55,094 nt of DNA, taken from a virus. Lineage: Duplodnaviria; Caudoviricetes. Location of the stretch: the IMG/VR virus record IMGVR_UViG_3300042997_001345, positions 1-55,094 of that record, one strand, 5' to 3'. Both the position numbers and the translations under genes were made by a program. The notes below the pieces were generated by a model that saw nothing but the letters and a program-made list of their open reading frames with translations, was not told the origin of the DNA and ran no database searches. Numbering within the stretch: the first letter of the stretch is position 1; each line of letters begins with the position of its first letter. Shown in pieces: positions 15,070-53,278 of the stretch.

Positions 15070-15243
15070 ATCAGTTTCTCCTCGGTTGAACACAGTTTTT
15101 CCTCGCTACCCTACACATACTTACACCGGTAATCCAGCGAGTTTAGTGTGCTGTGTTATTGACTGTGATCTGCCATAAGTATTTCTCTAGGCGGCCAATA
15201 TTCAAAAACTCACATGCTTGATGTTTGTTATAAATACAACACT

Positions 15244-17104: not shown

Positions 17105-17893
17105 GTGAAAGATTATTACAAAACATTAGGTATTAATAAATCAGCCGCTGCTGATGATATCAAAAAAGCCTACCGCAAATTGGCCAGTCAGCACCACCCC
17201 GATAAAGGTGGTGATACTGCACGATTTCAGGAAATACAAGAAGCCTACGCTGTTTTAAGCGATGTAGAAAAAAGACAGCAGTATGATAACCCCGTGCCGC
17301 ATTTTTCTCAATCAGGCGGAACAAACTTTGATTTTGATGCAATATTCAACATTTTTGGTGCTGATCTTAGAAATCAACGTAGACAGGCACCGCGTCTTAG
17401 CATTTGGATATCGTTAACTGATGTGTTCATTGGTGGTCCTAGAACACTATCATTGCAGTCTGATATAGGAACAAGTCAAATTGAAATTGATATTCCAGTT
17501 GGTGTCAGAGATAACGACAATATTCGTTATCCTGGACTAGGGCCAGGAGGCCAGGATTTAATAATAAATTATCGAATTCGCCCAGATCCCAAATGGAATC
17601 ACGACGGTACAAATATTATTACAGAGATTTCTGTGGATATATGGGATTTAATATTGGGAAGTGATTTGACAATAGTAGACATACTGGGGAAAGAGTTAAT
17701 GGTCAAAATACCTTCAGAAACACAACCTCAATCAATACTAAGAGCACGAGGCCGGGGACTTCCTGCCAGAAGATTAAATGGCGATCGCATTGATTCGCCA
17801 CCCGGTGATTTGCTTATTAAATTGCATGCCAAAATAAACTCTCCAGTGGATCCCACTATCCTACATGCCATTAGGAAATCCCGTGGGCAATAA
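17105..17893 (+). CDS. DnaJ-class chaperone (J domain plus C-terminal domain, no zinc finger; CbpA-like)
   Basis: DYYKTLG...[26 protein letters not shown]; C-terminal GDL motif. Confidence 0.9.
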
Positions 17894-17900
17894 ATACCGT

Positions 17901-18353
17901 ATGGAACTGACACGCCGTACACTACGACTTAAACTAAAGCCAGCCGATCTACACAATCAATGGGCCAATGAAGATCTAGTGATTCGCATGCTTCAAGTCA
18001 TGCACGAACACCACGGCATTGGACTTGCTGCCAACCAAGTTGGCGAAAGAATTCGAATGTTTGTAATGTACATTGACGGACATAGTTGGGGCTGCTTCAA
18101 TCCCGAAATAGTGCAAACTTACAACGACCTTACCGAATTTGACGAAGGATGCTTGAGTTTTCCCGGAGAAACGTGTATAATAAAACGTCCCGACACTATT
18201 GATGTACGTTACTATGATGTAGCCGGGATTGAAGTGGTTGAAAAACTAACAGGGCTGGCCAGTAGATGTTTCCAACACGAACTGGATCACTTAAACGGTA
18301 TTACCATGCACGATCGTTACAAGGAACAAAATGCAGAACAATCCGGAAATTGA
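17901..18353 (+). CDS. def: Peptide deformylase
   Basis: GIGLAANQVG, EGCLS and QHELDHLNG; TAAATA 4 nt before ATG 17901. Confidence 0.95.
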   Translation: MELTRRTLRLKLKPADLHNQWANEDLVIRMLQVMHEHHGIGLAANQVGERIRMFVMYIDGHSWGCFNPEIVQTYNDLTEFDEGCLSFPGETCIIKRPDTIDVRYYDVAGIEVVEKLTGLASRCFQHELDHLNGITMHDRYKEQNAEQSGN

Positions 18354-20619
18354 ACAAATCATCGAACAGTCTGTTCGAATTGCTCGAGACCGACAGCACG
18401 AATATGTGCTAACAGAACACTTACTAATGGCCCTACTGCAACATGCACCATTTAGAGCATGTTTAATCAAATTCGGTGTAGAAATAAATCATTTTGACCG
18501 AGACCTTTCCAAATACCTAGACGGCTTGACTAACTTGGTCAAGGATACACCCGACTTACAGCCCAGAAAAACTAATGGCCTAGAGCGTGTGTTTAATCGT
18601 GCGCTGACACAGGTCTTATTCACTGGTCGTAGAACAGTGACCACAGCAGACTTGTACTTGGCTATTATGGCCGAAAGCAACAGTCACGCTCACTACTTCC
18701 TGCTCAAGTACGGTGTTACTAAAAATGAATTTGTAAAGTTTTGGGACACAAACTACAATCACACTTCGGCCGGCAGCATTACCGATCAGCAGGCCAACGA
18801 GATCTTAGAAGAATACTGCACTAACCTCACAAAGCTGGCCACAGAAGATCGTTTAGAACCGGTAATTGGCCGAGAAACAGAGATTGAAGAAATGGTCACG
18901 GTATTGGCACGAAGATTCAAAGCCAATGTGCTGATGGTAGGTGATCCGGGTGTAGGCAAAACTGCCATTGTGGATGGTCTTGCACAGCGTATTGCTAAAG
19001 ATGATGTTCCCGAATTCTTGAAAGGACACGAAGTCTGGAGCCTAGAAATTGGCTCCTTATTAGCCGGCAGCAAGTATCGCGGCGAGTTTGAAGAAAAGCT
19101 CAAGGATGTGATCAAGGCTTTAGAAAGCAAGAAGAACTGTGTGCTGTTTATTGACGAAGCACACACTATGAAAGGTGCAGGTGCAAGCGGTAACAGCAGC
19201 TTAGACTTTGCCAACATGATCAAGCCGGCTATCACCAAAGGCAGTCTCAAGGTTGTGGCCAATACCACATGGGAAGAATACTACGAATCGTTTGAAAAAG
19301 ATCGCGCACTGATGCGACGCTTTTACAGACTTACAGTGGATGAACCTTCCGCAGAAACCACAGAAAAGATCTTGATTGGACTCAGCCCAAGATTAGAAAA
19401 ATTTCACAATGTCATGATCGACACAGAGGCCATGCTGGCAGCAGTTGAACTGTCGGGACGTTTTATCACTGACAAAAAGAATCCCGACAAAAGCATTGAC
19501 CTGATAGATGCTGCTTGTGCTAGAGAACGTGTCAAAGATGCCGGTACACTCACAGTCACAGCAGACCTAATACGTCAGCAACTGAGCCGTGTAACTGGTG
19601 TGCCTATGGATCGCCTGGAAAATACTACCAGTAAGAAACTCGCAGACCTTGATGCCAATATCAAAGAAAAACTATACGGGCAAGATTCTATAGTTGATCG
19701 AGTGCTGGAGCGTGTGTACATTACCTTTGCTGGTATTGGCAATGAAAAACGACCCATGGCATCATTCTTGTTTATGGGACCAACCGGCACAGGCAAAACT
19801 GAGTTGGCCAAACTGTTGAGCCAAAACTTGGACATGACCTTGCTGAAATACGATATGAGTGAATATCAAGAGAAACACACAGTCAGCAGTTTGATTGGAG
19901 CACCGCCGGGGTATGTAGGCTTCGAAGACGGCAATGTAGGTGGCGGCAAGCTGATATCCGACATCAGCAAGAATCCCTTTAGTATCTTGCTGTTTGACGA
20001 AATTGAAAAAGCACACCCTGATGTCACCAACATCCTGTTGCAGTTGCTGGACGAAGCACGTATTACCAGCAGCAACGGCAAGACTGTAGATTGCAAGAAT
20101 ACCATTGTTATCATGACTTCGAACTTAGGTGCCAGAGACAACGAAAATAATGCGATTGGATTTGGCCAGAGCTTGGAAAAAACTGGTGCCGAAGATCGTG
20201 CCATGAAAGACTTCTTCAAACCTGAACTGCGCAATCGCATTGACTTGGTCTGTAAGTTCAACAAGTTGGATTCTTTGTCGATTAAGAAAGTTGTTGTTAA
20301 GTTTGTGGATGAACTCAAACAGAGCTTAACTAACAAGAATATTCGTTTAAACTTGTCGGAACCTGCTATTGAATACCTAGCAGAACAAGGTTACGATTCC
20401 AAGATGGGTGCAAGACCTTTGAGTCGCAAGATTGATGAGCTAATTCGTGTACCTCTCAGTAAGCGCATCTTGTTTGACAATCTTAAAGACACCACTATCA
20501 CTGTGAATTTAATTGATGGCAAATTGTCATTTGATAACTCTTTTGATCCTAACGAAGGTCGCCCAACTGTAGATAATAATGGATACATTGTCATTGATCG
20601 ATTCAAACCTAGAACGTAA
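18331..20619 (+). CDS. clpA: ClpA/ClpB-family AAA+ chaperone
   Basis: Clp N domain; two ATPase modules (GDPGVGKT/FIDEAH and GPTGTGKT/LFDEIEKAH); KYRGEFEE, GAPPGYVG, GARPL; no ClpB middle domain. Confidence 0.92.
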   Translation: MQNNPEIEQIIEQSVRIARDRQHEYVLTEHLLMALLQHAPFRACLIKFGVEINHFDRDLSKYLDGLTNLVKDTPDLQPRKTNGLERVFNRALTQVLFTGRRTVTTADLYLAIMAESNSHAHYFLLKYGVTKNEFVKFWDTNYNHTSAGSITDQQANEILEEYCTNLTKLATEDRLEPVIGRETEIEEMVTVLARRFKANVLMVGDPGVGKTAIVDGLAQRIAKDDVPEFLKGHEVWSLEIGSLLAGSKYRGEFEEKLKDVIKALESKKNCVLFIDEAHTMKGAGASGNSSLDFANMIKPAITKGSLKVVANTTWEEYYESFEKDRALMRRFYRLTVDEPSAETTEKILIGLSPRLEKFHNVMIDTEAMLAAVELSGRFITDKKNPDKSIDLIDAACARERVKDAGTLTVTADLIRQQLSRVTGVPMDRLENTTSKKLADLDANIKEKLYGQDSIVDRVLERVYITFAGIGNEKRPMASFLFMGPTGTGKTELAKLLSQNLDMTLLKYDMSEYQEKHTVSSLIGAPPGYVGFEDGNVGGGKLISDISKNPFSILLFDEIEKAHPDVTNILLQLLDEARITSSNGKTVDCKNTIVIMTSNLGARDNENNAIGFGQSLEKTGAEDRAMKDFFKPELRNRIDLVCKFNKLDSLSIKKVVVKFVDELKQSLTNKNIRLNLSEPAIEYLAEQGYDSKMGARPLSRKIDELIRVPLSKRILFDNLKDTTITVNLIDGKLSFDNSFDPNEGRPTVDNNGYIVIDRFKPRT

Positions 20620-23174: not shown

Positions 23175-24065
23175 ATGGCTGAACAACAAATCCAAGTAAA
23201 CGTCGACTACTTACGTACTACAAAAGTACATATCTGCATGCCTTGCTACGGTGGCATGCTAACAGAACAAACTTTTATGAGCTATATCAAATGGGCTAAC
23301 ACTTGCCGTCAATTAGGTATTGATTGGACCATAGAAACCATGACCAATGAAAGTCTTATTAGTCGTGCCCGTAATACTTTGGTAGCTAAATTTCTCAATA
23401 ATCCAGATTCAACACATTTAATGTTTGTGGATGCCGACATTGGATGGGAACCGTGGCACTTGTTGGTCATGCTGAATAGAGATGTAGATGTGATCGGTGG
23501 CTTGTATCCTATGAAAACTTTACCAGTCAAGTGGGTCGTGAACGGATTCGACGGTGCCGAAGAAGGTCCAGATGGCCTGCAAGAAGTAAGCAAGACCGGT
23601 ACAGGCTTTATGTTGGTTAAACGTCATGTATTTGAAAAATTAAATGAGCATCCTGCTGTCAAGCCTTTTAACAACGACATTGGTCTCCCGAAAGAATTAG
23701 ATAAACATCTCAAAACTTATTATGATACTGCGGTACGTGAAAATCGTTATTATAGTGAAGATTGGACTTTCTGCGAAAACTGGCGTGACATAGGTGGCAA
23801 AATTTGGGTAGACAAGCGTGTGTTGTTACGCCACACGGGAAGTTATGTGTTTGACTTTGCTGCACAAGAGCCCCTGTACAAGGCCCTGCACGAAATTGCT
23901 GTACAAAATGGCACAGTGCCTGCTGCGGTAGTGGCTGCATCACCACCTGTGGCAGCTACACCTGCTACACAATTGGCTTCCAATGTCACTCCCACAGTCA
24001 TTTCTTCCAACGAGCCAGCCGCTGCTCCAGCAGCTAAAAAAGCCGCCAAGAAAAAAACAGCTTGA
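23175..24065 (+). CDS. GT-A fold glycosyltransferase-like protein with Ala/Pro/Lys-rich tail
   Basis: SLISRARN, HLMFVDADI (DxD), GTGFMLVKR.VF, SEDW.FC; GAGGA RBS. Confidence 0.75.
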   Translation: MAEQQIQVNVDYLRTTKVHICMPCYGGMLTEQTFMSYIKWANTCRQLGIDWTIETMTNESLISRARNTLVAKFLNNPDSTHLMFVDADIGWEPWHLLVMLNRDVDVIGGLYPMKTLPVKWVVNGFDGAEEGPDGLQEVSKTGTGFMLVKRHVFEKLNEHPAVKPFNNDIGLPKELDKHLKTYYDTAVRENRYYSEDWTFCENWRDIGGKIWVDKRVLLRHTGSYVFDFAAQEPLYKALHEIAVQNGTVPAAVVAASPPVAATPATQLASNVTPTVISSNEPAAAPAAKKAAKKKTA

Positions 24066-24069
24066 CCCT

Positions 24070-24645
24070 ATGCAATCTTATGTGATAACATTATTTGAAC
24101 ATGAAAATAGTCAAAGGTTATTACAGGATTGCTTGGCCAGCTGCCGCAAGTGGGGATGGTCAGCAGAGCCATTTCCGGCCACATTAGGCACCGCAGTAAC
24201 AGCCCAGCATTATGAACGTGCTGGGCTTTACCTTAACCCTGCTACCAAAATATATCAACGCCCTGGACATCAAGGTTGTTTCTTCAGTCACTGGTATTTG
24301 TGGCATCGGTGTGTTGAAATAAACGAACCCATTGTCGTACTAGAAACAGATGCTGTAATACAAGGTCCATTGCCGGTGTTGGACCTGTCGAAAGGCATAC
24401 AAAAATTTCATCAAGATCGCGGCACTAAAACAGGTACAACAGGAACTTGGAGCAAAGGAGCACATGCTTATGCACTAAGTCCCGCACACGCCGCAGCATT
24501 GATTAGTGGTATTAAATCAACCGAAGTCAAACCCAGTGACAAGTGTATTGGTACCAGATTTGTGCCGTGGCATCACTGGGATTGGGATTTGGTTGCACTC
24601 AACCTCTCACGTGGTCCTTCGACAACTGCTAAACTTGTTGTTTAG
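24070..24645 (+). CDS. Glycosyltransferase family 25-like protein
   Basis: SYVITL, GCFFSHWYLW, IVVLETDA and GAHAYALSP..A motifs; ATG 24070. Confidence 0.75.
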   Translation: MQSYVITLFEHENSQRLLQDCLASCRKWGWSAEPFPATLGTAVTAQHYERAGLYLNPATKIYQRPGHQGCFFSHWYLWHRCVEINEPIVVLETDAVIQGPLPVLDLSKGIQKFHQDRGTKTGTTGTWSKGAHAYALSPAHAAALISGIKSTEVKPSDKCIGTRFVPWHHWDWDLVALNLSRGPSTTAKLVV

Positions 24646-25543
24646 ACGGGCAGTTATACTGGCATGCCAACACTGGCGATTTTGTTATTTTTTGATAAAA
24701 TTCAATAGTATCGGGTTGTTTTAATAGTTGAGTAATTGTATTCTTTTCTATTTGAAAATTCTTTTGATTTTTACCAAATATTGTTTTATAATAAAATCTA
24801 TGATCTTTCACATAGCAACATGGAACATAATGACCTGTTGCCGATATAAAGTGTTCCCTTCCGCTGGTACACTTTGGATCTATAACAACATTGGTTCCTT
24901 TCATAAGGCTATTTTGTAACGAATATCTCGGTCCGAGAAAATCTGCATCTGGCACAAGATATTGTGTTTTTTCGTCGAATCTGTCACTGGGATCCAGTAA
25001 AAATTCATCTATACCCAAATTCATTGCCAGCTGCTGTGCCTGGTTAATTTGTGTTTGATTAAACGCAAATGGAATAAATTTCCAAACTGTTCGACAACTG
25101 GATTGAGCCATGATTTTAATACCGAGTTCTATGGAAACCCAGTCTGCATTTTTTCTATACTGTGTAAAATTATCTGGAATACCGTCGATAGAAAAATATA
25201 TAGAATCATCTGCAGTTAAAATTTTAGCTGTAATATTCCACCAGTCTGTGTCTTTATAACTACCATTGGTTACCACAGTGATATGGCTGCCGCGATTCTT
25301 TAATTTTTGTAACAAGTCGTGAAATTCTGGATGATATATAGGATCTCCGTAAACTCCGCATAATATAATTTTTAATCCTGTTAAATCAATATCTAAAAAA
25401 TTCATTAAAGAATTGACATTGATACTTTTATTTGTCCAGTGCTGTGGCCATTGGTTAATAAATTGAGTTCTTGCACATCCTTCACACTTTAATGTGCATA
25501 TATTAGTGGGTTCTATATGAAATCCAGTTATTTTATTAATCAT
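24629..25543 (-). CDS. Radical SAM protein with SPASM/twitch-like C-terminus
   Basis: CTLKCEGC (CxxxCxxC), GDP, TNG, FSIDG; C-terminal C...PCC...CQYNC. Confidence 0.85.
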   Translation of the reverse strand: MINKITGFHIEPTNICTLKCEGCARTQFINQWPQHWTNKSINVNSLMNFLDIDLTGLKIILCGVYGDPIYHPEFHDLLQKLKNRGSHITVVTNGSYKDTDWWNITAKILTADDSIYFSIDGIPDNFTQYRKNADWVSIELGIKIMAQSSCRTVWKFIPFAFNQTQINQAQQLAMNLGIDEFLLDPSDRFDEKTQYLVPDADFLGPRYSLQNSLMKGTNVVIDPKCTSGREHFISATGHYVPCCYVKDHRFYYKTIFGKNQKNFQIEKNTITQLLKQPDTIEFYQKITKSPVLACQYNCPSKQQV

Positions 25544-25549
25544 AATGTT

Positions 25550-25568
25550 TATTTAAACGGATTAAATA
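25550..25568. promoter_or_regulatory. Back-to-back divergent TAAATA late-type boxes
   Basis: Minus-strand TAAATA at 25550-25555 and plus-strand TAAATA at 25563-25568 in a 44-bp gap. Confidence 0.55.
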
Positions 25569-25587
25569 CAGTATACAAATAAAGACT

Positions 25588-28500
25588 ATGGACATCAAAG
25601 AGCTCGAAGACTATCGCCTTAGCGATGCTATTAAATTTCACACACATCTGAACCCTCGAATCTGGGGCCGTGACGAACATCTGTTGCCGGAAGTTAGAGA
25701 AAAACTTATGGCCATTGCTGCTGACTTCAAGGAGTTTCTGGGCTTGGATTTAGAAGTTAAAGACATTACCATCTCCGGCAGTAATGCTGCTTACACTTAC
25801 ACAGATCACAGCGACATCGATCTACACTTGGTCACAGACTTGCCCCGAGCAGATGCCAGTGAAATATATCGCGAACTGTTTGATGCCAAAAAATATCAGT
25901 ACAACGATCAGCACAATTTTAAAATTGGCGGATACGATGTAGAACTTTATGTGCAGAACGCCAACGAAAATCCCAAAAGCCAGGGCATTTATTCAGTGCA
26001 GGACAATAAATGGATTAGTGTTCCTAAACGACGCAAACCCGAAGTAGACGACATTTCAGTACGGAGCAAGTACGAAGATCTGGGTCAGCGTATCGAAGCT
26101 GCCATCAAATTGGGCAATCGAGAACAGTTGGATTCTTTGGGCAGAAAGATAAGAGAATTTCGCCAGGCCGGATTAGATAAGACCGGCGAGTTTGGCCCAG
26201 AGAATTTGGCATTCAAAATACTACGCAGCAACGGCACATTGGATCAACTACGTGCTGCCAGATTAGCTGCCCGAGATCAAGAACTCAGTATAGAAGAAGC
26301 CAAGAAAAAGAAAAAGAAGAAAGCATTCCGGTACGGCTTTGGAGGCGTGTTTTTTCCCGGGTATCATTACTATGGGCAAACAGATGCTGCCGCAGACGGT
26401 GGTGGCGGCGATGGTGGTGGTGAAAGTGTAAAAGAATCTGCTGTATTTTTGAATCCCAACGCAGTGATAGTAGGACAAGATCACAATAAACCATTGAATC
26501 TCTCGCCCGACACATTGAAAAAAGTCCAGGCTATAGCTGCTAAACACGGTGCTCGGTACGAAGGCAATGGTAAGGATCGCACTTACACAAAAGGACAGAT
26601 TGACAAATATGTAGGCAGCTGGGACGATGAGGTTGCTAAAACTGCCGGCCCAAATGATCCAAAATGGTTGTATGTTTTGTTTGCCAATGTAGATGAAAAT
26701 AATAGAGTTCAACGAGTTGGTGTTGACGCCCAAGATACAATATTCAATAGATTACTGGCAACTGCCAAGGATAATTCATTCCAAGGAATAGGATTTACAT
26801 CACAAGCACTGCAAAAGTTTTTGTCAATGGCCAGCGAAGGCAAATATGATTTTGTAAATATGAGTCAACAACCTGCTACACAAGAAAATCTCACTCGCTT
26901 TCTCAAAGCAGGAGAGTCCTTGATGTGGCCTAGCAATTGGGAACAATATCCCAACAAGGCAGGAAAAATAGCCAAAGCGGCCACAGTTGATGTTAGAGAT
27001 CAATATCTTGCTACAAGAAAAGCAGGTGTCTACGTCACCGGAAGTGGGCACTTAAAGGCTGTTCAAGATATCACAGGTCAACAAGGTGTGACGGAAGATT
27101 CATACAAAGATACCGGTGGTACTTTTATGGATCGATTGGTTGGCGAGATCATGAATTATCATTCAATGCATGATACATATCCAAAACTCAATGATTTTAC
27201 TAGTGGGGTAAAATCAAAACTGAAATCCTTGGGCAGAGACAAGACAGCTCGACTATTTCAACAAGCACTCAAGCAAGCTGCTGAACAGTCGGGTCAGACA
27301 GGTGTGGCGGAAGAGAGCAAAGGCATACGGGAATCTGCTGACGATCTGCAAACACAGTTGGAAAAGTTTGCTGCATTTTGTGTAAAGAAATTGGGAATTG
27401 AAAATCCTCCTGGCATACAACTAAAACGTGATCCCGAATGGTCACGTCGTAATGCCACATTTGGCCGTTATGTGCCGGGAACCAATGTCATGATCTTGAG
27501 TGTGGCTGATCGTCATCCCATGGACATCATGCGTACCTTGGCACACGAACTGGTACACCGCAATCAGGATGAATATGAACCCATGCCGGTTCATGCCGGA
27601 GAAACTGGCAGTGACTGGGAAAATGAAGCCAATGCTAAAGCCGGCGTGCTAATGCGTGACTTCGGCGAACAGAATCCCGATACCTTTGATAAGAAAGCCT
27701 TGGCGGAAGGTGAGTTAAATGAATATCGCGATGCTCTTTATACTTTTGTAAAGAGTAAATTTCCAACCTGGCCTGAGTATGTGTTAAAAGATTTTTTGTA
27801 TCCACAAGCCAAGGGCATTCGTAACCAAGCCGAGTTGGATGATTTTCTAAAAAGAATTAACCAAGAATTTGGTAATTGTAAATGGACGCTGACTAAACTT
27901 CCAATCACTATGGATATCTTTACACCTAAAACTCAACAAATGATTAAAAGCCGAGAAGGTGGTTCAAGTAATCCTTTTCAAGTACCGCGTGATGCCGAAA
28001 GACATGCACAGCAATCAAAAATGATTCAGCAAAAGGGCGTGAGCACTGAACCAATTATTGTTGCTAAATTATCAAACGGTTATGATTTGATTGAAGGTTG
28101 GCACAGAACTATTCAGCATCTAAAAACATTTCCTGAAGGATACACAGGTCCTGCTTGGGTCTGCACTGGAGCCACATACAAAAGTGAAAGTGTCAATCAA
28201 GGTGTGGCGGAAGCGTCGGAGCAATCACTATCATCAATGGTGGCCCAGGATCAAGCTGAACGCAACGAGTATTCACAATTTGTAAAATCACAAGCAGGTG
28301 GCGACTGGACCAAAGGGGCCAAGATGTATGCCCAACTCAAAAAAAGACCCAGCGATGACATATTCAACGATGCTGCAAGATTAAATCAATTTATGAAAAT
28401 GACGTTTGATTTTGATAAATTCACTGATCAAGATTGGGACAATTATTGGCTATTGGCACAACACAGTGATGACCACCGTGACTTCCAGAAGAATGCGTTA

Positions 28501-31218
28501 TCAATAATTAAAAAATATCAAGGTACGGATCATTTGCACTACAAATATCTGTATGATCGAATCAGTTGCGGATTAACTGGTAAACAAAAATACGGAACGC
28601 AGGATATTTGTGGTACAGACAATCAAGTTGTAGCAGAAGCGTCGGGCTATATTCCTGTAACGGATGCAGAAGCCAAAGACCCACGCTACAGCATGGCCAT
28701 TACACAGGATATCCGACCTGGTGAGGTCAAGCGTCAAGCTGCCAAGCTGGGTTGGAAGACTACCCCAGCTGGCACACCTCCTACTGCTAGAACAAATGGA
28801 CTTGTTGAAGAACTCACACGTAAGTTACAATTAGTTAAAGAAGGACTGGGTTTTCCTTTAGTAAGCGAACAAGAACAAGAGCTAGACGAAGTGGCCATGA
28901 GCCCGTCAGCTCTGCAAGCGTTTGCTGCCAGTCCAGCCGCTGCAGGCATGAAAGCCGGCTTCGAAGCTGAGTTAGTGTTTACCGGCATCGGCGGCGACGA
29001 AGAAGAAGGCGAATGGGAACCTGATTACAGCTATGATCCACGTGCATACAGCCTCGAGAACATTGAAGACTTTTTCAGCTCAGGCGATTTTGCTGAGGGC
29101 TTGTCTCGGCGTCAAAAAAACGCATTAGAAGAAGACTGGATGGACTGGTATGACCAGACCCTGTATGATGAGTTTGATGCACCTGTTGCTGTACGTGAAT
29201 GGATTCAAGAAAACGACTGGGACGAAGAAGACCTTATTGAACGTGCGTTAGATGATGAATACAGCGAAGATCGTGTAAAAGAGATACTGGCAGCCATGGA
29301 ACGACGGGTCAGGGGTACTGGCACTGCTGCTGATGCTGACTTAGTAGAAGAATATGTGGGTGCCAGACAAGAAGTTGAACGACAGCTGGATGAACGTGTA
29401 GATCTGGCCATAGAAGACCAAAACAGCGATTACGAAAGTGCTCTAGACGAATTTAGAGAAAACTGGGACCGGTCCGAAAGCGACTGGTTGCGTGATCGCG
29501 GCTGGACCAACATGAGCGATTTAGCTTATAACTTTGATTTTGCATGGCCACACATGACCATGTCGGGTGGCAGCTCCGAAGGTGGATTCAACGAAGAAGC
29601 AGCACAACAACTGGCTGACAGCTTGAGTGAAGCTCTAGGAGTTGAAACCACTGTCAGCACTGGTTATCACGGTGCTACTCGCGATACAAGTACTTGGATT
29701 TTTGAACCCGACGGCAGCTTAGATGCCGACGATGATGCCAACATGCCGGTGGAGATTGTGAGTCCGCCTATGCCACTAGCAAAAACTCTAGAAATCCTGC
29801 CCAAGTTTTTTGAGTGGGCTGAAGAAAATGGTGCTTATGCCAATAGCTCAACTGGTTTCCACATGAGCGTGAGCATGCCCGATCACGAAGGCAACCTGTT
29901 GGACTATACCAAGTTGGCCTTGTTCCTGGGTGACGAATATGTGCTGCAACAGTTTGGACGCGAAGCCAATACCTATGCCAAGAGTGCCTTACAGAAGATT
30001 CGCGAAAAGAAAGGAAATGTCAATGCCGAAGAAATTCTTAGTACAATGCGAAAACACCTGGGTCATTTTGCTTCACGTGCGTTAGCACAGCCAAGTGGAT
30101 TTGGCAAATACACATCGATTAATCCCAAGACCAATTACATTGAATTTCGTTCAGCAGGCGGCAGCAACTACTTTGAGGACATGGATCGGATACAAAACAC
30201 CCTGATGCGTTATGCTCGTGCCATGGACATTGCGTTTGATCCTGACGCCGACAAACCCGAATACGCCAAGAAACTGTACAAGTTGTTGACCGATACAAAA
30301 ACACAACAAGTAACGGATCCTAAAACTGGTACCAAACGTACAGAAGTTGTGCCTGGGCTTGACAACGATGCTATCAGTATATTCAGTCGTTTTGTAGCAG
30401 GAGAGTTGCCCAAGTCAGAACTCAAAGGGGTTCTCAAGAAACTACAGTACGGTCGCGAAGTGGCCAAAAATCCACCCAAAGAAAAGATTCAGTGGCAAGT
30501 AACTCACCCCAATGGCAGTTCTCTTATTAAGGTATCGGCCAGTTCATCTGAGGAAGCTATTAAGATAGCCAAACAAGAGTGGGGCGATAGTTTGCGAGTC
30601 TGGCCTGATTCTGCTTATCGTGCAGAGCCAGTGGTACCTGCCACACAGACTCCGGCAACTGATCAACTCAATGCACCAGCAGCAGATGATCCCGGTGGCA
30701 ACTATGTGCTGAGACGTAGAGAAGGCAGCGAAGGTGTAGGTCCGGTGGTACATAGATTCTCAGCCCCAAACAACATGGCAGCAGTAGAAGCATCTCGACA
30801 ATGGACCACTGCTCGTGGCGTTGAACGCCGTAGTGTTTGGTTGGATCATATCTCAGGTGTGCCACCTGAGATATTAAATGCAAGACCTGTCAGTGCCACA
30901 CTGGGAGAACCTCGTCCGGCGTTTACTGAGCCACGATCCAGTTCTATTCCTGAAGTACCGCTTGACATAGCACAGAATTTCCAGGAACCACCTGCCAGTT
31001 GGGACAGTGGTTCACCAATTGTGTCAGAACCTCAGAATTTCCCGGCCGCTGGCAATTCTTTCTCCGGTGAATGGAAAGTGGTGGATGGTCTGGGACGAGA
31101 AGTTCATAGATTCGGCGGTATTGGCAACAGTCAAAGCGATGCCAATCGAGTAGCAGCTCAGTGGGCTAGACAAACTGGGTTTGACGGAAATCTGGAAGTA
31201 TATCCAGTGATGAGATAA
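25588..31218 (+). CDS. 1876-aa multi-domain polyprotein: Pol-beta-type nucleotidyltransferase, TraB/Tiki-like, zincin peptidase, ParB-like, DUF6624-like and putative amidoligase modules
   Basis: ISGSNA..SDIDLH; VTGSGHL; TLAHELVH..E.EAN; EPIIV..LIEGWHR; WLLAQHSD..YLYDR..KYGTQ; GFEAE..EPDGSL..EIVSP..TGFHMSV..IEFR. Confidence 0.85.
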   Translation: MDIKELEDYRLSDAIKFHTHLNPRIWGRDEHLLPEVREKLMAIAADFKEFLGLDLEVKDITISGSNAAYTYTDHSDIDLHLVTDLPRADASEIYRELFDAKKYQYNDQHNFKIGGYDVELYVQNANENPKSQGIYSVQDNKWISVPKRRKPEVDDISVRSKYEDLGQRIEAAIKLGNREQLDSLGRKIREFRQAGLDKTGEFGPENLAFKILRSNGTLDQLRAARLAARDQELSIEEAKKKKKKKAFRYGFGGVFFPGYHYYGQTDAAADGGGGDGGGESVKESAVFLNPNAVIVGQDHNKPLNLSPDTLKKVQAIAAKHGARYEGNGKDRTYTKGQIDKYVGSWDDEVAKTAGPNDPKWLYVLFANVDENNRVQRVGVDAQDTIFNRLLATAKDNSFQGIGFTSQALQKFLSMASEGKYDFVNMSQQPATQENLTRFLKAGESLMWPSNWEQYPNKAGKIAKAATVDVRDQYLATRKAGVYVTGSGHLKAVQDITGQQGVTEDSYKDTGGTFMDRLVGEIMNYHSMHDTYPKLNDFTSGVKSKLKSLGRDKTARLFQQALKQAAEQSGQTGVAEESKGIRESADDLQTQLEKFAAFCVKKLGIENPPGIQLKRDPEWSRRNATFGRYVPGTNVMILSVADRHPMDIMRTLAHELVHRNQDEYEPMPVHAGETGSDWENEANAKAGVLMRDFGEQNPDTFDKKALAEGELNEYRDALYTFVKSKFPTWPEYVLKDFLYPQAKGIRNQAELDDFLKRINQEFGNCKWTLTKLPITMDIFTPKTQQMIKSREGGSSNPFQVPRDAERHAQQSKMIQQKGVSTEPIIVAKLSNGYDLIEGWHRTIQHLKTFPEGYTGPAWVCTGATYKSESVNQGVAEASEQSLSSMVAQDQAERNEYSQFVKSQAGGDWTKGAKMYAQLKKRPSDDIFNDAARLNQFMKMTFDFDKFTDQDWDNYWLLAQHSDDHRDFQKNALSIIKKYQGTDHLHYKYLYDRISCGLTGKQKYGTQDICGTDNQVVAEASGYIPVTDAEAKDPRYSMAITQDIRPGEVKRQAAKLGWKTTPAGTPPTARTNGLVEELTRKLQLVKEGLGFPLVSEQEQELDEVAMSPSALQAFAASPAAAGMKAGFEAELVFTGIGGDEEEGEWEPDYSYDPRAYSLENIEDFFSSGDFAEGLSRRQKNALEEDWMDWYDQTLYDEFDAPVAVREWIQENDWDEEDLIERALDDEYSEDRVKEILAAMERRVRGTGTAADADLVEEYVGARQEVERQLDERVDLAIEDQNSDYESALDEFRENWDRSESDWLRDRGWTNMSDLAYNFDFAWPHMTMSGGSSEGGFNEEAAQQLADSLSEALGVETTVSTGYHGATRDTSTWIFEPDGSLDADDDANMPVEIVSPPMPLAKTLEILPKFFEWAEENGAYANSSTGFHMSVSMPDHEGNLLDYTKLALFLGDEYVLQQFGREANTYAKSALQKIREKKGNVNAEEILSTMRKHLGHFASRALAQPSGFGKYTSINPKTNYIEFRSAGGSNYFEDMDRIQNTLMRYARAMDIAFDPDADKPEYAKKLYKLLTDTKTQQVTDPKTGTKRTEVVPGLDNDAISIFSRFVAGELPKSELKGVLKKLQYGREVAKNPPKEKIQWQVTHPNGSSLIKVSASSSEEAIKIAKQEWGDSLRVWPDSAYRAEPVVPATQTPATDQLNAPAADDPGGNYVLRRREGSEGVGPVVHRFSAPNNMAAVEASRQWTTARGVERRSVWLDHISGVPPEILNARPVSATLGEPRPAFTEPRSSSIPEVPLDIAQNFQEPPASWDSGSPIVSEPQNFPAAGNSFSGEWKVVDGLGREVHRFGGIGNSQSDANRVAAQWARQTGFDGNLEVYPVMR

Positions 31219-31220
31219 CA

Positions 31221-31421
31221 ATGAGAGCAAATGAATTTGTAACTGAAAACTTTGCAGATGGCAAGGTCCGAGGCAAGAGTCGTCCTGGGCGTGTGAAACG
31301 TGCAGGTGCCAGTTGTTCTGGTTCTGTAACTGCCTTGCGTAAGCGAGCCAAAAATTCTTCTGGTGAACGTGCAAAGATGTATCACTGGTGTGCCAATATG
31401 AAGTCAGGTAAAAAGAAATGA
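31221..31421 (+). CDS. Small basic protein, putative internal head protein
   Basis: N-terminal MRANEFVTE; K/R-rich with 2 Cys. Confidence 0.75.
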   Translation: MRANEFVTENFADGKVRGKSRPGRVKRAGASCSGSVTALRKRAKNSSGERAKMYHWCANMKSGKKK

Positions 31422-32029
31422 GAGCAAACGAGTTAACAGAATACAGCAAAACCAGTAACAAGATCGACAAGATCCTGAAAGCCAAAGGTTACAAACGACT
31501 GGGTGCCGGTGTTGATCAAACAGCTTACTTAGAGCCTGGCACAGGATACGTACTCAAAGTATTTGGCACAAAAGGCGGCGAATCATTCAGTGCTGACCAT
31601 AAAATGTTTTTTGCCTGGGCAAAATACTGTATGAAAAACGCCGACAACCCGTTCCTGCCACGCTTTGGTGGTTACGAAAGTTTTGTACTTGACGGCGATC
31701 GGTATCTACAGATACGTCAAGAACCACTCAAGCCCCTGGGAGTTGTCGGGCACGTACTGGAATTGTTGGCAACTGCAATTGAGGACAACGGCATTCGAAC
31801 GTTAGAAGAGGCCGAGGAGTTCATCGAAGACTTTAATGAAGGTTATGTTCCAGCTTTAAAAAAGTTAAAGCAACAACTGGGCCCAGGTGGTGTAGAATTG
31901 ATGTTCAGCACCATACTGAGATTGTATTTGGTTGGCAAAAAAAATGGTTGGTTGTTTGACCTGCATGCTGGTAACTTTATGCGGCGTGCCGAAGGTACTC
32001 CAGTGATAGTGGATCCCTGGGTGCTGTAA
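31418..32029 (+). CDS. Protein-kinase-like fold enzyme, putative packaged protein
   Basis: LGAG Gly loop, VLKV, DLHAGNFM catalytic loop, VIVDP; N-terminal MRANELTE. Confidence 0.75.
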   Translation: MRANELTEYSKTSNKIDKILKAKGYKRLGAGVDQTAYLEPGTGYVLKVFGTKGGESFSADHKMFFAWAKYCMKNADNPFLPRFGGYESFVLDGDRYLQIRQEPLKPLGVVGHVLELLATAIEDNGIRTLEEAEEFIEDFNEGYVPALKKLKQQLGPGGVELMFSTILRLYLVGKKNGWLFDLHAGNFMRRAEGTPVIVDPWVL

Positions 32030-32041
32030 ACTAAATACATC

Positions 32042-32251
32042 ATGCGTATTTTTGAAATTGCACAACCTAAGAAATCTAAAATCAAATCTTACTCAGTTAA
32101 GATTAAAATACCTGGGCTTGGCGGGTATGTCAATATAACTGACACTATTGTAATGGCAGTAAATCCACAAATGGCACGTAAATTAGTACAGGTACAATAC
32201 AATGTTCCTCATGCCATGATTGGTCAACCGCGTGAAGTAAAACTACGCTAA
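32042..32251 (+). CDS. Small basic hypothetical protein
   Basis: MRIFEI start, TAAATA 4 nt upstream. Confidence 0.7.
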   Translation: MRIFEIAQPKKSKIKSYSVKIKIPGLGGYVNITDTIVMAVNPQMARKLVQVQYNVPHAMIGQPREVKLR

Positions 32252-32258
32252 ATACAGC

Positions 32259-32549
32259 GTGACCAAACAATTTATCAAAGCCCAAATCGACATTCACTGT
32301 AAACACAAAGGCAAAGAGTCGCCTTCTTATCGTGTGTTTGTCAACGACGAATTATTTGTCGAACGTACATGGATTTGGCCAGGATATTATCTTAGCGAAA
32401 TGCTACAAATTGAAGCCGAACCCGGTGAATATCATGTGCGAGTAGAGGCAGTTCAGCCCATTGGTGGAAAATTTAAAACACGTAACCATCGTGTAGAATA
32501 TGGTCCTGCACGTTGGATCGATGAACAAACATTGGAAATACTAACATGA
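32259..32549 (+). CDS. Hypothetical protein
   Basis: GTG start 4 nt after TAAATA. Confidence 0.65.
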   Translation: MTKQFIKAQIDIHCKHKGKESPSYRVFVNDELFVERTWIWPGYYLSEMLQIEAEPGEYHVRVEAVQPIGGKFKTRNHRVEYGPARWIDEQTLEILT

Positions 32550-32701
32550 GAGCCAAAGAATTTGTTAGAGAAAACGCATCAGCAGGTGCCACAAGTAGCG
32601 GTAGTGTTGCTGCAGTAGCACAACCCATGGGTGCAGTAATTACTCGCACACAAAACCGCAAACCTGGTAAATATAAAAACAGTTTAACACGGACCAAATA
32701 A
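32546..32701 (+). CDS. Small protein (51 aa, absent from ORF track), putative internal head protein
   Basis: MRAKEFVRENASAGATSSGSVA...LTRTK; ATGA overlap upstream and ends 1 nt before the dps start. Confidence 0.75.
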   Translation: MRAKEFVRENASAGATSSGSVAAVAQPMGAVITRTQNRKPGKYKNSLTRTK

Positions 32702-32702
32702 C

Positions 32703-33146
32703 ATGTTATCAGACGATCTAAAAACTTTATTGGCTACACAATATGCATTTGCGGTAAAAGCACAGTACTCTCATTGGAATGTGGAAGGACCTGATTTTGC
32801 TCAACTGCACAAGTTCTTTGGTAAACTGTACGAGGAAGTCAACGACAACAGCATTGATCAAACAGCAGAATTCATACGTGTGTTGGACGAATACACTCCA
32901 GGTAGTTTTGAACGTTTTCAAGAACTGAGTCTGATTCCGGGACAGACTAAGGTACCCCGTGCTCGACTCATGATCGAAGAACTCTTAGCCGACACCCAGG
33001 TCTTGATCGACCTGCTAAATCAGTGTTTTGTGTCAGCTGAACAAGAAAACCAGCAGGGCATTGCTGACTTTGTGAGTCAACGCCTGGCGGCCATGGGCAA
33101 ACATGCTTGGATGTTGCGTAGCTTCCTGAAGGACAACAGAGCATGA
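32703..33146 (+). CDS. dps: Dps/ferritin-like DNA-protection protein
   Basis: HWNVEGPDFAQLHKFF..LYEE...D..AE and KHAWMLRS. Confidence 0.9.
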   Translation: MLSDDLKTLLATQYAFAVKAQYSHWNVEGPDFAQLHKFFGKLYEEVNDNSIDQTAEFIRVLDEYTPGSFERFQELSLIPGQTKVPRARLMIEELLADTQVLIDLLNQCFVSAEQENQQGIADFVSQRLAAMGKHAWMLRSFLKDNRA

Positions 33147-34354
33147 AGATAAAAAATCTGTTTGAGGGGTTAAATGCTCAACAGCGTTCGGTACCTCAAT
33201 TGCCTGCTATGGCCAAAGCTAAACATATCAGTGTGTTGGGTGCTAAAACAGATCCTCAGCATCCATTTGCAGGATATGCTGTTGGTGCTGACGAAAGTGC
33301 CGAGCCAGATCGGAAAAGCATTGGTCCAGACCGGAACGATCCTTTTGAGAAAGGCTGGCGTGCTCAACCCGATGCTACTAACCCTTATGCAGCTGGCACA
33401 CCCGAACATGCAAAATGGCAAGACGGCCGAGATGAGCGTGAGGCACAGCCTAATCATTACGACGAAGATGTAGCGGAGGCAACAGGTGACGTAAAATTTG
33501 ATAAGATGCTTAAAGGTATCACCGGTAAAAAAGCAGTAGCTAAACAACAAAAAACAGACACAAAGCAACAGGTACGTGATGCGTTTGGTGGTATGTTTGG
33601 TGGAGGTAATCCTGCTGATAAACTCAGCATCAGAAACAAAGGTGTGGCGGAAGCTGAGCGTAATGAAATGGATACCCCTGCTGTGCAAGCAGCATTGGCC
33701 AAAATGGCCGAGCGTCACCGAGGTGAGAAGTGGACCAAAGAACAGTTAGCAGCCTTAGGCAAACGTATAGCTGCACGTGGACAAGCCAAGAAAGATGTAG
33801 ATGAAACTGTGTCTACGCACAAAGGCGGAAAAATAACCAAGACCCCCACTGGTATTAAACATCAAGCTGCACCCGGTAATTATGGAGGGTACGAACCCGA
33901 ATTTGACCATTTGCAAACTCTTGATAAAAATACCACAGGCAGGATTGAAAGATCAATGGATATTAAACACAAGAGAGAAAAAGCCTGGCAAGGTGGAATC
34001 GAGTTAGACGAAGCTGTAACCAAAGAAGATATCATCAGTAAACTAAAAGCCCGGTTAGGCGATTACCTGTCAGACATTTCTAAAGAAATCAAAAAAGATC
34101 CTGACCTGATCGACAAGTTGGCAGCTAAACCTGCTGGAGATCAAATGGGTCCTCCAGTTAAAACCGTCACCACAGACGACGGCCACCAAATCTCAATTCA
34201 CGGCAACGAAGATGACGGATTCCGTATCTCGATCAAGAACAAGCAGGCACCCAGCCAGTTTGCCAACTTGGATGAAGCTGTAATGGCCTGCGAAATGTAC
34301 TGTGCTCGACGCCGTACTCAAGCATTGAACGCTGACTATGTAGAGGAAGCCTGA
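33143..34354 (+). CDS. Modular hypothetical polyprotein, putative internal head protein
   Basis: MKIKNLFE start; short blocks separated by DVAE, GVAE, DVDE and ELDE. Confidence 0.7.
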   Translation: MKIKNLFEGLNAQQRSVPQLPAMAKAKHISVLGAKTDPQHPFAGYAVGADESAEPDRKSIGPDRNDPFEKGWRAQPDATNPYAAGTPEHAKWQDGRDEREAQPNHYDEDVAEATGDVKFDKMLKGITGKKAVAKQQKTDTKQQVRDAFGGMFGGGNPADKLSIRNKGVAEAERNEMDTPAVQAALAKMAERHRGEKWTKEQLAALGKRIAARGQAKKDVDETVSTHKGGKITKTPTGIKHQAAPGNYGGYEPEFDHLQTLDKNTTGRIERSMDIKHKREKAWQGGIELDEAVTKEDIISKLKARLGDYLSDISKEIKKDPDLIDKLAAKPAGDQMGPPVKTVTTDDGHQISIHGNEDDGFRISIKNKQAPSQFANLDEAVMACEMYCARRRTQALNADYVEEA

Positions 34355-34668
34355 TGAGATTTAGAGAAATTACCGAAGCTTGCTGGTCAGGATATGAACA
34401 GAAAGGCATGAAGAAAAAAGGCAATAGACAAGTTCCAAATTGTGTAAAGAAAACTGACGAAAGCCTAGAGAAGTATGTGGATAAGGGCGAGTGTCCCAAC
34501 TGCGGTGGTGAAATGGTCGCAGAAGACCAGATCACGGAAAAACAAGATGCCTGTTATCACAAGGTCAAAGGCCGTTACAAGATTTGGCCATCAGCTTATG
34601 CATCCGGTGCGCTAGTTCGTTGCAGAAAAGTAGGTGCTGCCAACTGGGGTAACAAGAGCAAAAAATGA
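34354..34668 (+). CDS. Small Cys-containing basic modular protein
   Basis: MRFREITE start; three blocks each with a Cys pair. Confidence 0.75.
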   Translation: MRFREITEACWSGYEQKGMKKKGNRQVPNCVKKTDESLEKYVDKGECPNCGGEMVAEDQITEKQDACYHKVKGRYKIWPSAYASGALVRCRKVGAANWGNKSKK

Positions 34669-35327
34669 GAGCCGCAGAATTCATCTCCGAAAAATGGAGT
34701 CAGAAGTACAAGAGCTCGATCAATTGTGCCAATCCCAAAGGCTTCTCACAAAAGGCACACTGTGCTGGCCGTAAGAAAAACGAGGACCTTGCTGAGAATC
34801 TGCGAGACTGGTTCGGCAAAGGCAAAGGCGGCGGAGCCGGTGGCGGTGGCTGGGACAGATACAACACCAAGGGCGAAAGAATTGGCAAATGCGGTGATCG
34901 CAAACCAGGCGAAGGCAAACCCAAATGCCTGAGCAAGAGTCGTGCTGCCAGCCTACGTGCTTCGGGCGGCAAGAGTGCTATAGCCGCAGCAGTGCGTCGT
35001 AAACGTGACAAAGATACCAATCCCGAACGATCGGGTGCAGCACGAAACGTACCAAATAAAAAACAAAACGAAAACAAAGATATAGAAACAGAATTATTAA
35101 AAAAACAGTTAATGGCACGTCATCCGCAGGCAAAGAATCTCAGTAATGCAATGGCGTTAGATTATTTTAAAAGTCAACAACAGGATCGCCGAGATATTGT
35201 TCGATTAGATCGCGAAAATGATCAAGAGGAAGCAGAAATTGAAAGACTTGACCAAGAAAACGATCAAGAAGAAACAGAAATTGAACGTCTTAAAAGAACT
35301 ATCAATCAACTTACACGAGGGAGTTAA
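34665..35327 (+). CDS. Basic modular protein with acidic coiled-coil tail
   Basis: MRAAEFISE start; duplicated RLD(R/Q)ENDQEE(A/T)EIE at the C-terminus. Confidence 0.75.
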   Translation: MRAAEFISEKWSQKYKSSINCANPKGFSQKAHCAGRKKNEDLAENLRDWFGKGKGGGAGGGGWDRYNTKGERIGKCGDRKPGEGKPKCLSKSRAASLRASGGKSAIAAAVRRKRDKDTNPERSGAARNVPNKKQNENKDIETELLKKQLMARHPQAKNLSNAMALDYFKSQQQDRRDIVRLDRENDQEEAEIERLDQENDQEETEIERLKRTINQLTRGS

Positions 35328-35330
35328 TAC

Positions 35331-35555
35331 ATGAAACCTATTCTTATAGTATTAGCAGCGACAGCAGCATTAACAGGTTGCGTGATATCAGATCCTTACT
35401 ATGTACAACCACAGACAGTATATGTTCAACCGCGTCCAGTGTACATTCCACCTCCGGTATATTATAGACCACCGCCACCAATACCACAGTGCTATTGGGT
35501 ACAGCGTTGGAATCCACAGTATCGCACGTATCAGAATGTCAGGGTATGTAGATAA
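35331..35555 (+). CDS. Small proline-rich lipoprotein
   Basis: MK plus hydrophobic core plus LTGC lipobox; Pro/Tyr-rich mature part; GAGGG RBS. Confidence 0.75.
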   Translation: MKPILIVLAATAALTGCVISDPYYVQPQTVYVQPRPVYIPPPVYYRPPPPIPQCYWVQRWNPQYRTYQNVRVCR

Positions 35556-53234: not shown

Positions 53235-53278
53235 ACAACATGACTGGTCATCCTCGACCCTATAACTCGGAGAATACA

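Follow-up and report, generated by a model that had tools for sequence, protein, structure and literature searches.

Unrelated protein modules joined in frame at a DNA-conserved GVAE linker: a candidate cassette system in an uncultured T4-superfamily phage

Why should a short coding sequence that joins unrelated protein modules be kept letter for letter, in one reading frame and in different genes? The question is raised by IMG/VR record IMGVR_UViG_3300042997_001345 (Duplodnaviria; Caudoviricetes), a stretch of 55,094 nucleotides (nt) that was analysed whole and is called the window here, in which the 14-mer AGGTGTGGCGGAAG recurs inside two genes, P0001 (25588-31218, + strand, 1876 amino acids (aa)) and P0002 (33143-34354, + strand, 403 aa). 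A first-pass annotation had read this element as a DNA recombination or insertion site and an encoded protease site at once, by which the phage would stack cassettes into packaged polyproteins. We found that the sequence, 18-20 nt long, recurs without a change of letter at hundreds of junctions that are unrelated to one another, something seldom seen in a protease site, and our comparisons support the gain, loss and swapping of modules at this motif and at its hydrophobic-x-Glu relatives. The reading that we favour, with a probability of about 55%, is that these genes belong to an expanded internal-protein locus, that their linkers are cut by the prohead protease and are places of recombination, and that the canonical 20-nt form is a crossover site.

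Within the window the 14-mer occurs exactly three times (27300, 28200 and 33640) and once with one mismatch (27084), always on the + strand and in the same frame; our recount placed the copies in the open reading frames (ORFs) P0001 and P0002, as had been proposed. The chance expectation for the 14-mer was 0.25, and four copies were reached by 0/100 shuffles. The core, GGTGTGGCGGAA, reads GGT GTG GCG GAA and encodes GVAE at 27301-27312 (P0001, aa 572-575), 28201-28212 (P0001, aa 872-875) and 33641-33652 (P0002, aa 167-170), and the mismatched copy reads GGT GTG ACG GAA and encodes GVTE at 27085-27096 (P0001, aa 500-503). Three "degenerate" copies that had been listed at 27694, 28624 and 33464 survive as peptides, namely ALAE (27697-27708), VVAE (28627-28638) and DVAE (33467-33478), all on the + strand, but their DNA is too diverged for them to be counted as copies. 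Codon shares in the 65 window ORFs are 0.39 for GGT, 0.22 for GTG, 0.058 for GCG (of Ala codons) and 0.80 for GAA, and therefore the canonical codon set is expected for one GVAE with p = 0.004 (0.4%). GVAE occurs three times in the 17,002 aa of the window ORFs and is written with the canonical codons in 3/3 cases, so the first-pass annotation was right that GCG is uncommon here (5.8% of Ala codons) and that the codon identity goes beyond what the peptide needs.

Related loci in IMG/VR number 59 for P0001 and 21 for P0002, on contigs of up to 355 kb, and the window was compared with 80 of them (L005-L084). In this set the core 12-mer was present in 52 distinct contexts, all in frame (GVAE) within long ORFs, and reverse-strand copies numbered 0 in the loci and 0 in five near-complete genomes. 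Non-redundant contexts (flanks less than 70% alike) numbered 51; the flanks are random past about 20 nt, and the conserved span is NAG CAA GGT GTG GCG GAA GGC, that is, (K/E/Q)-Q-G-V-A-E-G. Ranked by distinct contexts, the 12-mer comes first (44 vs 12 for the next unrelated word). Canonical codons were used in 51 of 94 GVAE peptides against 0.4% expected (binomial p 4e-96, which overstates the significance since the copies are related); with every copy in frame and on the coding strand, the relatives thus bear out in frame, strand and synonymous positions what the window had suggested. At codon -1 CAA was found 37 times and CAG once (window CAA share 68%), and codon -2 (K/E/Q) ends in G in 29/36 copies while its first base varies (window fraction 0.275). 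Among one-mismatch copies 21/30 are synonymous variants, and therefore the peptide is also selected and synonymous change is tolerated.

An exact scan of IMG/VR with the 18-mer returned at least 120 stretches; in the 80 loci listed it has 100 distinct contexts, and QGVAEG is in the longest open frame in 99/100. In cellular genomes (596 Gb) the same 18-mer was found in 56 stretches, which, judged by eye, are in mixed frames and mostly from high-GC genomes, L260 being the only phage-like contig among them. This 8.9-kb contig (39% GC) carries three in-frame 18-mer copies and was binned with a metagenome-assembled genome of an uncultured lake Bacteroidetes; it is probably a piece of a phage genome, and as a pointer to the host it is weak at best. 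A chance origin of the motif was rejected on the shuffles and on the IMG/VR and cellular-genome scans, and a genome-wide regulatory motif was rejected because the near-complete relatives (316-355 kb) hold only 0-3 exact 12-mer copies each.

The 53 canonical sites make 48 junction types, and module clusters with at least two unrelated partners through the motif numbered 6/39 downstream and 4/44 upstream; in L082, tandem duplicated modules form four repeats, each beginning at the motif. Shared junctions are bimodal, with either the exact motif or another peptide in its place. In three near-identical pairs, and three pairs only, the motif differs at 3/54 nt vs 5/720 nt in the flanks (Fisher p 0.014). 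L143:5408 and L180:821, and L019:14643 and L016/L018, are nearly identical except that the motif alone differs (GTG GCG vs GTC GCA; GGT vs GGC); such motif-only differences hint at faster turnover, or conversion, at the site. A first test on orthologous junctions kept 48/48 synonymous positions, but canonical queries had been chosen and several pairs share one flank only, and an unbiased version of the test, with 8 pairs only, gave no excess synonymous conservation; neither version is given weight here.

Where the motif stands in a protein is best seen in P0001, which was examined with Pfam, PHROGs, AlphaFold and Foldseek and whose modules all lie on the + strand. Its nucleotidyltransferase-like N-terminal module (aa 1-235, 25588-26292; phrog_36119, E 3e-40; the Pfam NTP_transf_2 match is weak, E 0.0018, under the cut-off) has tblastn matches to stand-alone genes of cyanophages, Maribacter phages and Lak phages. 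A run of seven Lys codons (A-rich, 26302-26322) and then a Gly-rich stretch stand directly before cassette block 1, and aligned reads are broken at the repeat at 26296-26326. Block 1 (aa 284-582, 26437-27333) is bordered on the left by an SVKE site (aa 280-283) with the first copy of the 9-nt repeat GAATCTGCT (26434-26442; border 26425-26442) and on the right by a GIRE site (aa 579-582) with the second copy (27331-27339; border 27322-27339). It is followed by a zincin metallopeptidase module (aa 583-707, 27334-27708) that holds HELVH (27544-27558, aa 653-657) and ends in ALAE; by a cassette for which ParB-like is a weakly supported name (aa 708-875, 27709-28212; Spo0J E 1.1, Atlas pointing to ParB_N and ParB-CE) and which ends in the canonical core; by a cassette ending in VVAE (aa 876-1017, 28213-28638), with GAAGCGTCG on both sides at 28210 and 28636; and by a conserved C-terminal backbone (aa 1018-1876, 28639-31215) that begins ASGYIP and contains Amidoligase_2 (aa 1339-1450, 29602-29937). 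Pfam named two of the nine P0001 modules, several being without a family match. With unrelated domains (nucleotidyltransferase-like, zincin, Amidoligase_2 and, weakly, ParB-like) and an HExxH zincin hub, P0001 fits, by its predicted domains, what Iyer et al. 2017 call a polyvalent protein.

In an AlphaFold model of aa 490-1040 the zincin domain (aa 590-699) has a pLDDT of 91-98, and its top Foldseek matches are the minimal zincins 4jiu/4jix (E 5e-3, prob 1.0), IrrE and Wss1; this module is carried by P0001 and nearly all orthologues, and in L009, L011 and L028 the ParB-like module forms a separate gene that has a leader. The pLDDT falls below 50 at aa 498-510, 569-583, 703-711 and 996-1024, and the GVAE at aa 872-875 falls in a long low-confidence stretch (aa 810-885), so that the linkers are predicted to lie in such stretches between folded parts. 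Low confidence at several sites, together with orthologue homology that breaks at the copies, agrees with the earlier placement of the copies at domain boundaries.

The orthologues show what happens at these boundaries. Compared with its closest orthologue, L005 (82-91% identical in the common parts), and with L006 and L007, P0001 has two extra blocks, aa 284-582 and aa 708-1017. The first, between SVKE and GIRE and within the 9-nt direct repeat at 26434 and 27331, corresponds in L005 to an empty site, ESVKE then SAD; the second lies between ALAE and VVAE, where L005 has PISE then ASGYIP. Both exact copies in P0001 and its GVTE lie in the inserted blocks and none lies in the conserved backbone. 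The main module of block 1 has counterparts with 80-85% identity in other genes of less closely related phages, and 47/83 of its 4-fold sites are identical to those of L011 vs 17/53 in the N-terminal module (Fisher p 0.008). The zincin module is itself mosaic, being 59% identical to L005 (9/30 4-fold sites) and 71% identical to L006 (24/42). P0002 repeats the pattern in another gene: about 60 aa at its N end and about 115 aa at its C end are conserved, its variable middle contains DVAE and the canonical core, and its family comprises 29 members with common ends and middles of 0-501 aa.

Cassettes flanked by repeats can be set beside empty sites with a single repeat. L084 has a single motif, CAG CAA GGT GTG GCG GAA then GCA, and L035, with flanks 93/94% identical to those of L084, reads CAA AAC GTG GCG GAA GGC, 121 aa, and AAA GGT GTG GCG GAA then GCA; L052 and L040 form a second such pair, and the 9-nt repeats of the window and the contigs with the empty site agree. 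These contigs come from a comparison of lake runs made on contigs at 90% likeness, and the variants are related strains and thus show presence only. Block 1 is missing from X4 and X11 (joints 26407/26428->27326, with a loose end at 26443), and one contig reads through a single GAATCTGCT. X11 is also without the ParB-like cassette, its joint (27657->28205) resuming inside the motif, and X2 is without aa 876-1017 (joint 28217->28681), GVAE-AS being joined to GYIPVNDKEARD (encoded by the 37 letters between). Further contigs diverge directly past the motif, at 28213 and 28220. Assembly chimeras at the repeat were judged unlikely by reasoning, the common stretch (up to 20 nt) being below usual assembly k-mers.

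The same picture was obtained from an all-against-all scan, which gave 128 module indels. Of their left ends 86, and of their right ends 101, have a hydrophobic-x-E no more than 6 aa away, where 31.7 would be expected, and the control versions with Asp (26/25 vs 37.8 expected) and Lys (25/26 vs 30.9) show no enrichment. A canonical copy with at most two mismatches was present at either end of 12/128 indels and at both ends of 3, and canonical copies at indel ends exceed the expectation of 2.4 per side. Motif statistics, modular mosaicism and breakpoints are in this sense matters of direct observation.

Could the linkers also be cut? T4 gp21 cleaves after Glu at L/I-x-E (PMC9026906, section 2.5), and Peptidase_S77, the T4 gp21-type prohead protease, and the gp23 capsid protein are encoded in 5/5 near-complete relatives (316-355 kb) that carry P0001 orthologues, so the appeal of the first-pass annotation to a gp21-type protease was well placed. 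Module borders in the window read V-A-E, V-T-E, L-A-E, I-R-E and V-K-E; the capsid protein of the relatives has YL(K/A)E then (N/S)A at about aa 40-43, and sites of this kind are numerous in their scaffold. The T4 capsid targeting sequence (CTS) is given as MKTYQEFIAE (PMC8442874) and is reported to be removed by gp21 (PMC9026906). A leader of similar form, M-[RK]-x(1-3)-[EQ]-[FL]-hydrophobic-x-E and typically M-R-A-x-E-F-I-x-E, opens 112 distinct ORFs in the window and the 80 loci, followed by differing proteins. The strict form opens three window ORFs, of 66 aa (31221-31421, MRANEFVTE then NFADGK), 51 aa (32546-32701, MRAKEFVRE then NASAGATSSGS) and 220 aa (34665-35327, MRAAEFISE then KWSQKYK), variants open those of 203 aa (31418-32029, MRANELTE) and 104 aa (34354-34668, MRFREITE), all on the + strand, and a further variant leader stands near 35834. 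The strict leader DNA pattern was found at 13 places in 4/5 near-complete relatives, with two loci per genome and 0 matches of a reversed control. The leader DNA (ATGAGAGC...GAATT...) is the second most widespread word, behind the GVAE motif. After its leader the 51-aa ORF reads NASAGATSSGSVAAVAQPMG, which resembles the N-terminus that the major capsid protein of the relatives is predicted to have once mature (YLKE, then NASAGSTSAGNIATLNRV), and the ORF may be a small capsid-arm mimic.

Leaders and internal linkers are equivalent in position. Homologous modules (ParB-like, NFADGK and KWSQKYK) start after a leader Glu or after an internal-linker Glu; the ParB-like module, for example, follows MRAHEFIVE as YRDRLLQYV in L009 and KALAE as GELNEYRDALYTFV in the window, and the L005 orthologue of the 220-aa ORF has an extra 99-aa cassette ending in NVAE. 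This equivalence is the best, if indirect, indication that internal linkers would be cut as leaders are. A TAAATAC box (25563-25569, + strand), 19 nt upstream of the P0001 start, resembles the T4 late promoter, whose consensus is TATAAATA (PMC1524935); a TAAATA box was seen by eye within about 30 nt upstream of the ATG of P0001 in the window and of 20/20 orthologues inspected, and a TAAATA(C) box also before the first head-cluster gene in the three relatives inspected. Further TAAATA(C) boxes at 2953, 23146, 32032, 32249 and 46797 end about 5-25 nt before start codons, and the short distance from box to start suggests that late mRNAs may be nearly leaderless. From the CTS-like leaders and the TAAATA box we infer that 25588 to about 36000 is an expanded internal-protein locus transcribed late. 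Cassettes stacked in packaged polyproteins that are cut apart in the head, as first proposed, are the most economical reading of the module turnover at linkers, the gp21-type protease and the CTS-like leaders together.

In the reading we favour, the products would be made late and taken into the prohead, either as single modules behind the M-R-A-x-E-F-I-x-E leader or as strings of unrelated modules, with nucleotidyltransferase-like, zincin peptidase, ParB-like and amidoligase modules and many of unrecognised family among them. The prohead protease would cut after Glu at hydrophobic-x-Glu linkers, the commonest form being (K/E/Q)-Q-G-V-A-E then G. The general recombination machinery of the phage would act on the 9-20 nt of identity at the linkers, and because these boundaries are short, flexible and in frame, recombination there would give viable new proteins, and modules would therefore move between genes and between phages. 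The canonical form of about 20 nt would be a portable crossover site that travels with the cassettes and whose copies decay once movement stops; it is in this sense that we infer recombination to be the reason for the nucleotide identity. A travelling crossover site is favoured by motifs that flank cassettes, a single copy at the empty site and homology that ends exactly at the motif, and by canonical copies in mobile material and decayed versions at old junctions.

Several points weigh against this reading. The loci were gathered by similarity to P0001 or P0002 or by the motif itself, and the indel events and loci are phylogenetically related, which makes the counts non-independent. Modules can turn over without the canonical DNA, since only 12/128 indels are near-canonical and 9-nt microhomologies serve in the two cleanest events of the window, and the L005 orthologue is without any canonical copy. 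The earlier claim that modules come and go at the motif accordingly holds for the motif and hydrophobic-x-Glu linkers taken together, with no need for the canonical form, and its companion, that the element is a DNA recombination or insertion site, has nucleotide conservation beyond the peptide in its favour and the non-canonical linkers of most indels against it. A master-copy model leaves unaccounted for both NAG at codon -2 (29/36, free first base) and the greater divergence of the motif than of the flanks in near-identical pairs. At P3, GVAE has Val vs the Leu/Ile of the published T4 motif, P0001 begins MDIKELEDY with no CTS-like leader, and the leader of P0002, MKIKNLFE, is a variant only. 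Cleavage, packaging and late transcription are read from sequence features.

The nucleotide identity might instead be due to a dedicated sequence-specific enzyme (a homing-type nuclease, a recombinase or a guided system) that recognises the site of about 20 nt and moves the cassettes. The domains would then be mobile between genes and between co-infecting jumbo phages, as in a true integron of protein domains; since the site has to be translated, it would serve as a cleavable linker too, and the joint would also be the maturation-protease site at which each domain is released in the capsid. The length of 18-20 nt, the position-specific pattern (NAG with a free first base, CAA 37:1, GTG and GCG against usage), the bimodal junctions, exact or replaced by another peptide, and the clustered motif changes in near-identical relatives all speak for such an enzyme. 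However, a scan with Pfam and/or PHROGs of 52 window ORFs, many of which have no family match, revealed no nuclease or recombinase, which is in line with the earlier remark that the window holds no recombinase; there is no inverted repeat or flanking structure, all copies being direct; most indels lie at non-canonical linkers; and T4-type phages are reported to shuffle PeSL cassettes without such an enzyme (PMC2839356). We consider a dedicated system unlikely, if worth keeping in view. Cutting of the linkers by the polyprotein's own zincin module, before or after injection and with the prohead protease uninvolved, is a narrower proposal, which draws on the presence of the module in P0001 and nearly all orthologues and on the prediction by Iyer et al. 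2017 that metallopeptidase (MPTase) domains process polyvalent proteins (PMC5512222). We think it rather unlikely, as cutting after Glu at hydrophobic-x-E is the published signature of gp21 (PMC9026906), P0002 and many other proteins have these linkers but no peptidase module, the linkers are positionally equivalent to the ends of T4-like leaders, and the capsid and scaffold proteins of the relatives have the same kind of site.

It is improbable, too, that the nucleotides are selected for a role in RNA or translation at the boundaries, such as a pause through a Shine-Dalgarno-like AGGUG and rare codons or a G-rich element, that would aid the folding of modules, with shuffling a separate matter. 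By reasoning, AGGUG is present in the motif and is made by the preferred CAA with GGT, GTG and GCG make GG doublets, and GCG has a share of 5.8%; the head genes of the relatives have strong AGGAG ribosome sites, and therefore the host reads Shine-Dalgarno sequences. Yet the closest orthologue is without the motif at the same boundaries, 21/30 one-mismatch copies are synonymous, and no conserved fold was found in 52 contexts (mean z -0.59 vs mononucleotide shuffles; pairing 0.58 in the core, 0.50 in the flanks). A G-quadruplex prediction for a single copy was negative, and Rfam gave 0 matches on 25000-35500 at E up to 1. Scarcely credible is the proposal that nothing is special in the DNA, GVAE being a favoured linker peptide whose identical codons come from recent duplication or common descent: the tandem modules of L082 and the existence of synonymous variants fit it, but 51 non-redundant contexts have unrelated flanks, 100 more came from an independent scan, and the codon set is found in 51/94 vs 0.4% expected, with conservation that reaches neighbouring synonymous positions.

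How do these features compare with known systems? The T4 internal proteins (IPI-III, Alt) are alike in their T4-type head genes, in a leader form ending in hydrophobic-x-Glu and in diverse cargo behind a conserved leader. Two internal-protein loci are reported in T4 (PMC12373910), and the relatives here also have two leader loci per genome; T-even phages are reported to vary greatly at their internal-protein loci, for which more than 30 variants and repeat elements at the flanks are described (PMC2839356). The present locus differs in that its polyproteins reach about 2000 aa and have several cut-type linkers within them, and in that the linker, not an intergenic promoter or stem-loop, marks the exchange points, one linker form being fixed in nucleotides. 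Polyvalent proteins (Iyer, Burroughs, Anand, de Souza and Aravind 2017; PMC5512222) resemble P0001 in their unrelated conflict-type domains, among them a zincin MPTase, a Pol-beta-type nucleotidyltransferase and a ParB-like domain, and are predicted there to travel with the DNA and to be divided into units by processing; the parts of that paper drawn on here propose MPTase autoprocessing and do not describe a repeated gp21-type linker or DNA conservation. PeSL cassettes (Arbiol et al. 2010; Comeau et al. 2014) share direct repeats that flank a cassette, a single repeat at the empty site and the lack of a dedicated recombinase; mini-circles were shown, and the authors draw an analogy with integrons (PMC2839356). 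Those elements, however, are an intergenic promoter and terminator that move whole genes, whereas here an 18-20 nt repeat lies inside ORFs, in frame and translated. In the gp38 glycine-rich motifs and gp37 conserved boxes (Tetart 1998; Trojet 2011), coding motifs part variable segments and exchanges occur in or near them (PMC3157838), but these motifs are structural and stand at fixed positions in one protein family, whereas the present linker joins unrelated domains in many genes and is protease-site-like. In phiKZ, 201phi2-1 and SPN3US many packaged proteins are reported to be cut after Glu at S/A-x-E (PMC9026906); the likeness lies in head and inner-body proteins cut by a gp21-like protease, in another lineage and at another motif.

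Integrons too have a short repeated site at cassette boundaries, and the first-pass annotation had spoken of an integron at the level of protein domains. This is an analogy, not membership, because no integron-like structure and no recombinase were found: among the 52 window ORFs scanned there is no IntI tyrosine recombinase (the record is 14% complete), and around the core of about 20 nt the flanks are random, with no attC-like inverted repeat and no excess folding. Integron cassettes are, moreover, expressed from a common promoter, whereas the modules here are fused into one reading frame. Shufflons place repeated sites in frame inside a gene. With respect to shufflon/Min systems, exact reverse-strand copies numbered 0 in the loci and no invertase was found among the window ORFs scanned. 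In a literature search on prohead proteases and internal head proteins of giant phages, none of the papers listed uses the word polyprotein, and a search for the linker peptide gave nothing related. The parts of the system are known (T4 internal proteins with leaders, gp21 processing, hyperplastic internal-protein loci, polyvalent proteins and repeat-mediated shuffling), and what appears new, as far as the portions of the literature covered reach, is the combination, for which we found no description: internal-protein polyproteins built of cassettes, a cut-type linker per cassette, and one linker fixed in nucleotides at hundreds of junctions.

If this reading is true, a widespread group of lake jumbo phages has made the internal-protein idea of T4 modular, a domain between two cut-type linkers being a packaged, injectable effector. 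Domains would be added, dropped and swapped without loss of frame, which would explain the fast diversification of polyvalent proteins, and because the linkers would delimit modules they would allow injected anti-defence proteins of uncultured phages to be recognised by a simple rule in the sequence. The locus would also offer a naturally evolved scheme by which T4-type capsids can be loaded with several cargos. The letter-for-letter motif points either to a new kind of recombination site or to a translational signal.

As for the phage itself, the window is a whole IMG/VR record with an estimated completeness of 14% and 41.7% G+C, and it is without a head module. Among cultured phages, none exceeds 51% identity to the family-B DNA polymerase of the window, the nearest being Sinorhizobium phage Phosso and Agrobacterium phage Atu_ph07 and then the Rak2-like group of about 350 kb, and megablast of the region against cultured phages gave no match. 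Because the relatives encode a gp21-type protease and gp23, with a gp22-like scaffold gene between the protease and capsid genes, the phage is placed in an uncultured branch of the T4 superfamily, as a jumbo phage. Of the 24 runs listed as holding the region, all of them metagenomes, 23 carry the label lake water and one just "metagenome", and none is an RNA run.

Other genes of the window were noted in passing. A ferritin/Dps-like gene (PF00210, E 3e-19; 32703-33146) lies within the internal-protein locus, its end overlapping the P0002 start. A proteostasis cluster (11008-11391, 14326-15093 on the - strand, 17105-17893, 17865-18353 and 18331-20619) encodes Cpn10-like, PhoH, DnaJ, peptide deformylase and ClpB-like ATPase proteins. 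GTP cyclohydrolase I (53240-53998), a radical-SAM/SPASM protein with a weak QueE-like PHROG match (24629-25543, - strand) and a 2OG-Fe(II) oxygenase-like ORF (23983-24645) may be parts of a base-modification pathway. At the 5' end (1-2502 and 2977-5847), C1q-domain and Laminin_G_3 (concanavalin-like) ORFs and a tail-spike-like ORF of 956 aa probably encode fibre or receptor-binding proteins.

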